From Escherichia coli O127:H6 str. E2348/69 (GTDB lineage: Bacteria > Pseudomonadota > Gammaproteobacteria > Enterobacterales > Enterobacteriaceae), in assembly GCF_000026545.1 (NCBI RefSeq), contig NC_011601.1: a stretch of 64,000 bases of DNA; one strand, 5' to 3'. A model generated the notes under the pieces. That model saw only the letters and a list, made by a program, of their open reading frames with translations. It did no database searches and was not told the DNA's origin. Position numbers and translations under genes: made by a program. This document shows positions 41,597 through 44,880 of the stretch, one piece after another (the first letter of the stretch is position 1; every line of letters starts with the position of its first letter).

Positions 41597-42577
41597 CTAA
41601 CGTCCTGCTTTTAACAATAACCAGATAAACACCGGCGCACCCAACGTTGCGGTGACCACGCCAATTGGCAGCTCTGCGGCAGCTAATGCCAGGCGCGCTA
41701 CAATATCGGCCAGCAGCAATGCGCTCGCCCCTGCCAGCGCGCAGCCGGGAAGTAATACGCGATGATCGGTTAAACCACACAGCCGGAGAATATGTGGGAT
41801 CACCAGACCAATAAAGCCGATAGCACCCGCCAGCGCCACACTGACGCCAACCATCCAGCCGGTCGCTGCCACCAGCACATTGCGCCAGAACCACAGGGGT
41901 AAACCCAGTTGCCGCGCCGAGATCTCGCCAAGTGCTAATATATTCATCGGCCTGGACTGACAACAGATCCACAACAACACGGGGATCAATGCCAGCATCA
42001 GCCAGCTTTGCCGCCAGTCTACGCCGCCAAAACCGCCCATCATCCAGTACATCAGCTGACGTAAATCAACAGAGGTGGAAAAGTAGATAGCCCACGTCAT
42101 TAGTGCGCTACAGATAATCCCTAATGCAACGCCAGCCAGCAATAACCGACTGGTCGAAAGATGACGACGGGCGAAACGTAAGAGTATTAAAGTGATGATA
42201 AGTGCGCCTGCAATCGCACACAGCCCTAGCGCCCAGTTGGGGAGTTGCCCTTGCCCAAGCAATACCGCGGCGATAAGCCCCACGCCTGCGCCGTTAGAGA
42301 CGCCAAGTAGTCCAGGTTCTGCCAGAGGATTTTCAAACAACGCCTGCATTACAGCGCCGGATATAGCCAGCGCCGCACCAACCAGCAATACAGCCAGCGT
42401 ACGTGGCAGGCGAATTTGCCAGACGAACAGTTCGCCACGAGGAGAAAACCAGTCACCTGGCAAAATCCATAGTTCACCGGCGCAAAGGCTTAAGAGAAGC
42501 GCCAGTAGCATCAAAACTGACAAGCATAATAACCAGCGAATATTTTGTCGCTGTTGTTGGCGGGCAAGTGTCAGCAT
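41597..42577 (-). CDS. btuC: Vitamin B12 ABC transporter permease
   Basis: 326-aa polytopic membrane ORF. Confidence 0.9.
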
Positions 42578-42766: not shown

Positions 42767-43183
42767 TCATTCGCTCCCCTCTTTTTCCTTATTTCGTTGA
42801 ACGCCAATTGCGACACACGTACTAAGCAAATCTTTACATTTCTCTACATCTTCAGACTTACGCAATTTGATGCTTTTTACAGACTGCGGGCTACTGTCCG
42901 TAGCACGATACATCGTTATTTCAATATCATTTCGGTCTAAGAGTCCCATAATGGCTTTTGCAACCTCCACACCCTTCTTCGCGAAATCAAAGAACAGAGC
43001 AAGTTTATATGGATTTTCGACGGAAAAAACTTCAATTTTGCTAAAACCAACATCGTGTAGAGAAAAATATTGCTCAACCTCATCTCGAAGTTCTGGATCG
43101 CATACAATGTCTATTCTCCAGTACTGACCTAAATGCAAATCGCTATTAACTGTTTTTTCCACAACATCCTCCTTACCCAGCAA
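42767..43183 (-). CDS. Hypothetical protein (138 aa), AT-rich, immediately downstream of and overlapping the int stop
   Basis: Complete ORF with acidic/lysine-rich composition; no family recognised. Confidence 0.45.
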   Translation of the reverse strand: MLGKEDVVEKTVNSDLHLGQYWRIDIVCDPELRDEVEQYFSLHDVGFSKIEVFSVENPYKLALFFDFAKKGVEVAKAIMGLLDRNDIEITMYRATDSSPQSVKSIKLRKSEDVEKCKDLLSTCVAIGVQRNKEKEGSE

Positions 43184-44147
43184 TAGGATTAAATCTCACC
43201 GCATCCTGCAAGTAATCCGGCGCAAGATGGGCATAAATCATCGTTGTCTGAATCTTTGCGTGCCCCAGAATTTTCTGGAGCGTCAGAATATTGCCGCCGT
43301 TCATCATGAAATGACTGGCGAAGGTGTGGCGCAGCGCATGAACAGCCTGGCCGTCAGGAACATCAGGTGCGACCGTTTTGATGACATCGCGAACCAATGG
43401 ATAATCCAGCGTCGGAAACACCAGTTTCCCGCCCCGTTTTTTGATCTTTTCAAACAGGCTTTCAGAAATAGGAACGGTACGGTTTTTGCTGTTCTTCGTT
43501 TTTGAAAAAGTGATTCGACAATGAAGAACACGGCGCTGCTCCAGTGCCGCTACCTCGCCCCATCGCGCCCCGGTCGACAGAAGGATTTCGACAGCCAGCC
43601 GTTCATCGGGATTTTCAGCCAGTGCATCCAGCAACTGAACACATTCAGACTTACTCAGATATCCCATTTCGCGCTCGTTAACCTTCATTCCTTTAAGGCC
43701 TTGAACGGGGTTATCGTTAAGAAAATGGCCGGATGAGATGAGTGCGGTAAACATCGCGCTTAACGCCCCAATCTCTCGATTAATGGTGCTGGGCTGTATC
43801 CCCTGCTCTATCCTGGACACACGTAGCTCGGTGAGCATCGTTGTATTAAGTTTATGCACACACGGGTCATCCATTGCCTCACTCAAGCGCAGCAATTTAA
43901 GGCGCGTGTTATGCCCTGACTTCATTAGCTGGCCGTGGTATTTCCACCACAAGTCAATAAGCACCGACAGCGGACGGCGATCAATGGAGTTTCCTTTCCA
44001 CTCATTGTTATGCTGTTGCGCCAGCACCCACCGCTCATATAAAACTGCATCCGATTTCGTTTTAAATTTTTTGCGAATGCGTTTGCCTTTACGCCCCTCA
44101 GGGCGCATGTCAAGAAGATACCCTCCCGGAATTGATTTTATGCTCAT
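43173..44147 (-). CDS. int: Tyrosine integrase (P2 Int-like)
   Basis: Strong similarity to P2 integrase (…EGRKGKRIRKKF…, …LSTGARWGE…, …HALRHTFASHFMMNGGNILTLQKILGH…MIYAH…); start taken at internal Met (MSIKSIPGGY) of the 374-aa ORF. Confidence 0.9.
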   Translation of the reverse strand: MSIKSIPGGYLLDMRPEGRKGKRIRKKFKTKSDAVLYERWVLAQQHNNEWKGNSIDRRPLSVLIDLWWKYHGQLMKSGHNTRLKLLRLSEAMDDPCVHKLNTTMLTELRVSRIEQGIQPSTINREIGALSAMFTALISSGHFLNDNPVQGLKGMKVNEREMGYLSKSECVQLLDALAENPDERLAVEILLSTGARWGEVAALEQRRVLHCRITFSKTKNSKNRTVPISESLFEKIKKRGGKLVFPTLDYPLVRDVIKTVAPDVPDGQAVHALRHTFASHFMMNGGNILTLQKILGHAKIQTTMIYAHLAPDYLQDAVRFNPIAG

Positions 44148-44196: not shown

Positions 44197-44505
44197 TTAA
44201 CCGGGCTGTGTACCAGTCTTGCGGGATTTTTGAGAAGACGATGTGTTTTCTGGCCCATCAGGGGAGAGAGAGGGACTGATCTGCCCAGCAGCCTCATTTG
44301 TTTTTCCCGTCATAAGCCAATTCATGTACTTAAAAAAGCGAGGGTGATTAACAATCTTGATAAGCACTTCGCCCCCTATGTTTTCAATCCGCCCCGTTTC
44401 ATAACGACGCAAAGTGCCGATAGGCACATCAATCAGGCCGCAAAATTCTTCGCGCGTTAAATCCTCTGATTCACGAATCACTCTAATTTTTTCACCGATA
44501 AGCAT
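44197..44505 (-). CDS. C: Immunity repressor (P2 C-like, HTH)
   Basis: 102-aa ORF divergent from cox, HTH at N-terminus, resembles P2-family C repressors. Confidence 0.75.
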   Translation of the reverse strand: MLIGEKIRVIRESEDLTREEFCGLIDVPIGTLRRYETGRIENIGGEVLIKIVNHPRFFKYMNWLMTGKTNEAAGQISPSLSPDGPENTSSSQKSRKTGTQPG

Positions 44506-44515
44506 TGACAGTGTT

Positions 44516-44563
44516 CCTATAAGTACACTAAGCTTGCGCGCAAGGTGTACTTATAAGTACACC
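44516..44563. promoter_or_regulatory. Candidate operator in the C/cox divergent promoter region
   Basis: tataagtacac half-site followed 16 nt later by the 18-bp perfect palindrome gtgtacttataagtacac. Confidence 0.5.
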
Positions 44564-44601
44564 AAGTCACAAACAACCACAGATAGCGCAGGTTATCACA
44601 C

Positions 44602-44880
44602 ATGGCAAAAGTCCTGAACACACACGAACAGGCAGACTTTGAGCGTTTAGCAGCGTTCTATCCCTACCGCGATGAGCATGGGTTACCAGTACTTGAAGAA
44701 AGCCTGAAAGATTACGCAAAGCGTACCAACCAAGCTGTTAACACAGTGAAAAGACAGGCTGACAGAGGTTCAATTCCCATCAACCAGGATGAAAAGAACT
44801 CAAGACGCACAGTAAATCTCTTCGCTCTTTTCCTGAAAACAATCAGGAGCGCAGAAAAATACGTGCAGATGACAAAATAA
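44602..44880 (+). CDS. cox: Cox/Apl-like excision-directionality and early-promoter regulator (positional call)
   Basis: 92-aa first gene of rightward early operon; weak sequence support. Confidence 0.45.
   Translation: MAKVLNTHEQADFERLAAFYPYRDEHGLPVLEESLKDYAKRTNQAVNTVKRQADRGSIPINQDEKNSRRTVNLFALFLKTIRSAEKYVQMTK

Follow-up and report, generated by a model that had tools for sequence, protein, structure and literature searches.

Two dyad-symmetric sites around the early promoter are putative operators of the P2-type C repressor in an Escherichia coli E2348/69 prophage

To our knowledge, the C repressor of phage P2 poses a puzzle, in that a symmetric HTH dimer is said to read asymmetric direct repeats, and we know of no structure of its complex with DNA. 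The immunity switch region of a P2-like prophage in Escherichia coli E2348/69 carries a perfect palindrome, with a similar sequence upstream of it, and raises the question of what a repressor of this type would recognize there. P2-type C repressors have been described as binding non-palindromic direct repeats, which all of classes I-VII seem to do; P2 C itself is a symmetric dimer, and the model put forward for it places one dimer on each 'half-site' (PMC2995052). On the other side, P2 C superimposes on P22 c2, a palindrome binder, with a similar distance between the recognition helices, and C.Esp1396I places one dimer on each of two directly repeated palindromes (PMC2995052). The sites of WPhi are 10-bp non-palindromic repeats, 34 bp apart, that flank the -10 element of the early promoter Pe (PMC1904268). 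The literature that could be searched, outside which lies the work of Karlsson et al. 2006 on the operators of classes I-VII, yielded neither a description of palindromic P2-type C operators nor an account of the switch of this prophage.

The stretch of DNA analyzed here (64,000 nucleotides, hereafter the window) covers the switch region of a P2-like prophage that measures 36.5 kb and lies between ihfA and btuC. Its genes include those for capsid, terminase, tail, Ogr and replication endonuclease of the P2 family. The genes around the switch are the following.

43173-44147, minus strand: integrase gene (RefSeq annotation; Pfam Int_N and Phage_integrase), downstream of C in the lysogenic operon.
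44197-44505, minus strand: gene of the C immunity repressor, P2 C family, 102 aa.
44602-44880, plus strand: Cox-like gene, 92 aa, phrog_575, first gene of the early operon.

The 102-residue C protein matches the P2 C structures (PDB 2L49/2XCJ) over its full length, residues 3-98, with E=4e-16; besides P2 C, its PDB sequence matches comprise only two weak HTH matches. It is assigned to phrog_147 (E=2.5e-31) and Pfam HTH_3, and its identity to P2 C ranges from 39% to about 47%, the latter value being obtained by tblastn. The Cox-like protein belongs to phrog_575, 'Cox-like excisionase and repressor' (E=1e-7), and its gene occupies the position that cox has in P2 and WPhi. It is followed on the plus strand by early genes and an A-type replication endonuclease, so that int-C faces cox and the early replication genes, which lie on the opposite strand. 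With C on the minus strand, the Cox-like gene on the plus strand and a spacer of 96 bp between them, this spacer is where the lysis-lysogeny switch would be expected, in agreement with the initial annotation, which had located the palindrome between C and cox.

The 801-bp switch region is present nearly full-length (at least 98.5% identity) in 110 of 5,426 complete E. coli genomes, and all 110 copies are chromosomal. A megablast search of the phage collection with the switch region gave no match, and no phage in that collection has a C more than 53% identical to that of the window. A named immunity class of P2-like coliphages requires at least 95% identity of C to the class representative (PMC3448106). 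The window's C is 39% identical to that of P2 (class I) and 38% identical to that of WPhi (class III), and UTI89 (class IX) differs from the window in both protein and spacer; classes I, III and IX are thus out.

Several further features of the prophage were recorded. A small gene of about 131-138 aa (42767-43183, minus strand; 42767-43162 in RefSeq) separates int from the end of the prophage that faces btuC; its position, downstream of the lysogenic operon, is moron-like. To the right of the replication endonuclease, between the replication and portal genes, a cargo block (29943-34880 of L173, the E2348/69 prophage) encodes an S8 family peptidase and an AAA ATPase, a possible defence pair, together with a ParM-like segregation protein and a partition/stability protein. 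A Hok/Gef toxin gene is found at the ihfA-side end, and a recombinase (invertase-like) gene adjoins the tail-fibre genes. The prophage family integrates directly beside btuC (41597-42577 in the window). In a survey of P2-like viruses published in 2026, the BtuC permease is counted among the phage auxiliary metabolic genes (PMC13100340); through imprecise prophage boundaries, BtuC-type calls of this survey may include flanking host genes.

Sequence analysis of the switch region revealed the following symmetric elements, given without strand.

44544-44563: O2, a perfect 20-bp palindrome, GGTGTACTTATAAGTACACC, with an 18-bp core at 44545-44562.
44511-44528: O1, an 18-bp site, GTGTTCCTATAAGTACAC, coextensive with the 18-bp spacer of the putative Pe.
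44533-44544: a 12-bp palindrome, CTTGCGCGCAAG, in the spacer between the two sites.

O2, composed of a left arm GGTGTACTTA and a right arm TAAGTACACC, is longer than any other perfect palindrome of the 64-kb window, the runners-up measuring 14 bp. By chance, about 0.06 palindromes of 20 bp are expected per window (64000 x 4^-10), and about 1e-4 in the 96-bp C-cox spacer. O1, which starts 34 bp before it, is identical to O2 at 16 of 18 positions and dyad-symmetric at 7 of 9 pairs. In each site, GTAC-containing arms surround TTATAA to form a dyad of about 18 bp, and an exact 11-bp direct repeat, TATAAGTACAC, recurs at 44518-44528 and 44552-44562, again 34 bp apart. Because O2 is palindromic, direct and inverted orientations of the O1/O2 pair are indistinguishable. 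The initial annotation had reported a perfect 18-bp palindrome preceded by an extra half-site; the sequence is as described, but the palindrome is 20 bp long, and the upstream TATAAGTACAC copy, 16 nt before the 18-mer, is part of a full site.

A search with the 18-mer, allowing up to 3 mismatches, returned O1 and O2 only from the window and the whole prophage, and nothing from shuffled sequence. Distal operator copies such as those of phage 186 were not found in the 36.5-kb prophage. The commonest relatives have CTTGCGCACAAG in place of the 12-bp palindrome between the sites, which breaks its symmetry, and in two diverged loci, L043 and L046, it is replaced. Given this lack of conservation, the GC palindrome was rejected as a functional element and is probably incidental.

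A strict scan for sigma-70 promoter and terminator consensus over 44300-44800 called no promoter and no terminator. We thus placed Pe with a looser geometry scan, which asks for a -35 element with at least 5 of 6 matches to TTGACA, a 16-19-nt spacer and a TAnnnT -10 element, and which returns on P2 exactly the annotated Pe hexamers of NC_001895. The 16 P2-type switch regions scanned were drawn from the window, two diverged class-A loci (class A being that of E2348/69), two sister classes from E. coli genomes, eight classes from IMG/VR contigs, phage SEN5, UTI89, P2 and WPhi. All 16 regions have such a promoter in the same position, next to the C start codon or overlapping it, and its spacer invariably contains site 1. 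This spacer is 17 nt long in P2 and WPhi, and all others have an 18-nt option (L158 also 16 and 19). The elements assigned in the window are listed here.

44505-44510, plus strand: putative Pe -35 element, TTGACA, abutting the C start codon (CATTGACA), from the geometry scan.
44529-44534, plus strand: putative Pe -10 element, TAAGCT, from the geometry scan.
44580-44608, minus strand: tentative Pc, with -35 TTGCCA at 44608-44603, a 17-nt spacer and -10 TATCTG at 44585-44580.

The putative Pe (44505-44534) thus reads TTGACA-18-TAAGCT, with a weak -10 element and an 18-bp spacer wholly occupied by O1, and the 18-bp core of O2 would fall at about +4 to +21 of the transcript, whose start is predicted at about 44541 on the plus strand. 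In the class-A alignment, the -35 hexamer is invariant, and the -10 position reads TATTCT in L043 and TAAGAT in L046, keeping the TAnnnT frame. TATAAG at the center of O2 and TATAGG in O1 were discarded as -10 candidates on either strand, as they have no conserved -35 partner. The placement of Pc, which the strict scan of 44300-44800 also missed, is weak and tentatively follows the annotated face-to-face Pe and Pc of P2; the predicted Pc start is at about 44573 on the minus strand. The initial annotation had expected Pe, Pc and the C operators at this location: the sites do overlap a putative promoter whose placement exactly matches that of the Pe annotated in P2, whereas Pc is only tentative.

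The imperfection of O1 can be related to the translation start of C, for which one further element is needed.

44515-44518, minus strand: putative Shine-Dalgarno sequence of C, AGGA (minus strand TATAGGAACACTGTCAATG), 9 nt before the ATG.

O1 differs from O2 only at 44515 and 44517, and these two differences, which make TAGGAACAC out of TAAGTACAC on the minus strand, create the AGGA. The left arm of O1 thus appears to double as the ribosome-binding site of C, which would explain why this arm is degraded.

The overlap with a ribosome-binding site also brings up a mainly RNA-level role, in which a 5' hairpin of the Pe leader, or O2:O1 pairing that hides the C Shine-Dalgarno sequence in the Pc leader, tunes mRNA stability or C translation. 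An O2 hairpin is indeed predicted in the Pe leader (-17.7 kcal/mol, z=-4.9), and in the putative Pc leader (44503-44573, minus strand) O2 is predicted to pair with O1 across the AGGA (MFE -29.4 kcal/mol, z=-6.2). However, any two similar palindromes fold in this way by construction, and O1 lies outside the Pe transcript. Furthermore, the short arms and 6-8-nt non-complementary centers of the sites in other classes make poor hairpins, yet their placement relative to the -35 and -10 elements is the same, and changes in the sites go together with changes in the DNA-binding domain of C, as described below. A mainly RNA-level role is accordingly very improbable in our judgment. Since O1 overlaps the ribosome-binding site of C, O2:O1 pairing in the putative Pc leader may, speculatively, limit C translation in addition, as a secondary effect.

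The reading of O1 and O2 as operators of C draws further on their conservation. IMG/VR contains 37 loci with a near-identical C and two informative diverged loci, which compare with the window as follows.

L043: C 88% identical, Cox 74%; O2 18/18, O1 16/18, inter-site spacer 10/16.
L046: C 68% identical, Cox 33%; O2 18/18, O1 17/18, inter-site spacer 10/16.

Downstream of O2, the DNA of L046 and that of the window are essentially unrelated. The helix-3 segment PIGTLRRYETGRIEN is identical in the C proteins of the window, L043 and L046, and the left arm of O2 is invariant in both diverged loci while adjacent bases vary. As most class-A relatives are nearly identical, this conservation argument leans mainly on L043 and L046, and the left arm of O2 could be kept for another cause, such as the initially transcribed region of Pe or RNA structure.

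Two sister classes, B (O104:H4, L002) and C (E275a, L003), present the reverse combination. Compared with the window, both have a closely similar Cox, the same C tail and the same right half of the spacer; the HTH domain of their C differs, and the left half of the spacer contains wholly different repeats, AGACGACT twice in L002 and TGAATAC plus TGAGTAC in L003. Taken with L046, which keeps the sites beside a Cox of 33% identity, this amounts to a double dissociation, and the sites therefore travel with the DNA-binding domain of C and not with Cox. Such co-travel is what would be expected of C operators.

The double dissociation also weighs against the view that the sites serve Cox, and with it we considered a site for a host factor such as IHF and a terminator between convergent promoters. 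The element does lie between C and cox, and P2 Cox binds within the switch region (PMC3936717). But the sites persist or are replaced irrespective of Cox, and Cox and Apl sites are direct repeats one helical turn apart (PMC7498355), not 18-bp dyads. As to a terminator, the stem is not followed by a T-run, and the consensus scan of 44300-44800 called none. We regard this group of explanations as extremely unlikely. Given the dissociation from Cox, the lack of a T-run or called terminator, and the link of the sites to the HTH domain and promoter geometry, the Cox-site, IHF-site, terminator and RNA-only readings were rejected.

The comparison of the window with L002, L003, L004 and L006 also revealed that the immunity modules of three heteroimmune E. 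coli prophage classes are mosaic. The C tail (from ...TNEAAGQISPSLSPDG), the right half of the C-cox spacer and cox are common to the three, and the HTH domains and left spacer halves are unrelated. This mosaicism implies recombination breakpoints inside C, near codon 66, and just right of O2. Module swapping is thus visible here: the HTH domain and the left spacer half move together, against a constant background of Cox, C tail and int. A class-B prophage of E. coli AR_0128 (L005, 1560-1890) still has C and its putative operators but only about the first 30 codons of cox, and it has lost the early genes as far as the replication region; it resembles a prophage that has decayed but kept its immunity.

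Dyad symmetry was assessed across immunity classes by comparing the best 16-bp dyad of each of 12 class representatives with shuffles of its own spacer. The following classes gave the lowest p values.

Window class (A): TGTACTTATAAGTACA, p=0.002.
L162: GGAGCTAATTAGCTCC, p=0.002, with a second copy, GGATCTAATTAGCTCC, 33 bp upstream.
UTI89 (PhiECO5, class IX): TTCACCACATGGTGAA, p=0.016.
L002: GTCGCCTATAGACGAC, p=0.03.
L132: GGTGCTCATGAGTACC, p=0.03.
L161: GGTAGCACTTGCTACC, p=0.05.

P2, WPhi, the L003 class, SEN5, L158 and L131 gave no individually significant 16-bp dyad against shuffles of their own spacers (p=0.32-0.94). The combined Fisher p value for the 12 classes is 2e-5. In most of them the best dyad lies at the O2 position, where near-perfect dyads are found in L162 (GGAGCTAATTAGCTCC), UTI89 (TTCACCACATGGTGAA), L161 (GGTAGCACTTGCTACC) and L002 (AGTCGCCTATAGACGACT). 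UTI89 was rejected as the window's class despite its near-palindromic O2. A GGT-N10-ACC frame that fills the Pe spacer is common to many classes. In the first 60 nt after the C start codon, L131 and L132 (both from IMG/VR) contain GGTGC-N6-GTACC as site 1 and GGTAC-N6-GCACC as site 2; these pseudo-dyads are mirror images of each other and form an inverted pair, not a direct one, unlike the published rule for the family. As a separate observation, L162 (IMGVR_UViG_2851019069_000003) has, upstream of C, a perfect 20-bp palindrome of its own, ATGGAGCTAATTAGCTCCAT, around the 16-bp core GGAGCTAATTAGCTCC, and the copy 33 bp upstream, which matches at 15 of 16 positions, abuts the C start codon. Judged by sequence, the putative operator of the window is the clearest case of a dyad feature that recurs in uncharacterised classes and is weak or absent in P2 and WPhi.

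These comparisons bear directly on the classic P2/WPhi arrangement, by which only the right-hand TATAAGTACAC copies would be read, by one subunit per dimer, and the left arm of O2 would go unrecognised, being kept for some other cause or by chance. Direct repeats are the paradigm of the family, as in WPhi with its 10-bp repeats 34 bp apart (PMC1904268, PMC2995052); an exact 11-bp direct repeat is present in the window, the left arm of O1 is degenerate, and P2 and WPhi have no significant dyad. However, a perfect 20-bp palindrome would arise in the spacer with a chance of only about 1e-4, L043 and L046 keep its left arm unchanged amid changing bases, and the overlap with the Shine-Dalgarno sequence accounts for the degeneracy of O1. 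The near-perfect dyads of L162, UTI89, L161, L002 and L132 (Fisher p=2e-5 over the 12 classes) point the same way. We thus consider recognition of the right-hand copies alone unlikely.

Taken together, the features observed in the sequence, the way they are conserved and linked to the HTH domain, and the geometry of the promoter indicate that O1 and O2 are in all likelihood the two operators of the prophage's P2-type C repressor at Pe, with C as the putative binding protein. One symmetric C dimer would occupy each dyad of about 18 bp, both recognition helices reading a GTAC-containing arm, and the two dimers, about three helical turns apart, would bind cooperatively. The bound dimers would occlude the Pe spacer and the start region, so that RNA polymerase is excluded from Pe. 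Shutting off Pe would in turn repress the early operon, maintain lysogeny and confer immunity to superinfection. In this model we infer the binding, its stoichiometry and cooperativity, as well as the transcription start sites. Palindromic sites aside, the arrangement is an ordinary repressor-operator one.

Symmetric recognition by P2-type C is, on the sequences compared, not a proven property of the family, because P2 and WPhi show no significant dyad. A broader proposal is that the direct-repeat rule is not general, the ancestral or common mode being one symmetric dimer per (pseudo)palindrome of 16-20 bp, with two sites 31-34 bp apart around the Pe -10 element; P2 and WPhi would then be degenerate cases with one recognisable arm. 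We offer this proposal tentatively, as a serious possibility that falls somewhat short of probable. If it is true, the E2348/69 class, with its perfect 20-bp dyad, and the L162 class, with a 16-bp core extended to 20 bp by its flanks, are natural substrates for the way a C dimer reads DNA. A common prophage class would in any case provide a P2 C homologue with a perfect-palindrome putative operator, a clean substrate for co-crystallization, stoichiometry and half-site mutagenesis, and the likely immunity determinant of the E2348/69 prophage is hereby defined.

Comparison with known systems places this switch closest to those of WPhi and P2. The window shares with WPhi a C-int operon that faces cox, a TTGACA -35 element immediately next to the C start codon, a site 1 within the Pe spacer right before the -10 element, and a site 2 placed 34 bp downstream (PMC1904268). 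In contrast, the 10-bp half-sites of WPhi (TATTGGTGAC) have no significant dyad, whereas the sites of the window are 18-20 bp long and dyad-symmetric; the early genes also differ, being DUF4761 and DUF4754 genes in the window and orf78 and B in WPhi. With P2, the switch shares a repressor homologous over its full length and the order -35, O1, -10, O2, but the P2 operators are non-palindromic 8-bp direct repeats (GTTTAGAT) 22 bp apart, as against palindromic sites 34 bp apart.

Dyad-symmetric sites bound by HTH dimers are known from C.Esp1396I, P22 c2 and 434 cI (PMC2995052), and the window's C would resemble these proteins in this respect, although they are not close sequence relatives and act in another genetic context, and the sites of C.Esp1396I are spaced 15 bp apart. 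Phage 186 likewise combines a P2-like phage switch and face-to-face promoters with inverted-repeat operators (PMC1904268). However, 186 CI is a two-domain protein of about 190 aa that forms a heptamer of dimers, uses distal operators and works with CII, whereas the C of the window, with 102 aa and a single domain, is of the P2 C type, and the search of the prophage returned no distal sites. Of the comparison with P2, WPhi and 186 suggested at the outset, the layout and spacing thus fit P2 and WPhi, whose own dyads are insignificant, and the 186 CI type is excluded. The different operator architecture proposed by the initial annotation holds at the level of the single site: in place of the direct repeats of the P2-type family, O2 is a perfect 20-bp palindrome and O1 is dyad-symmetric at 7 of 9 pairs. 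The layout of the pair is the usual one, in which two similar sites flank the Pe -10 element with the geometry of P2 and WPhi and at the 34-bp spacing of WPhi.
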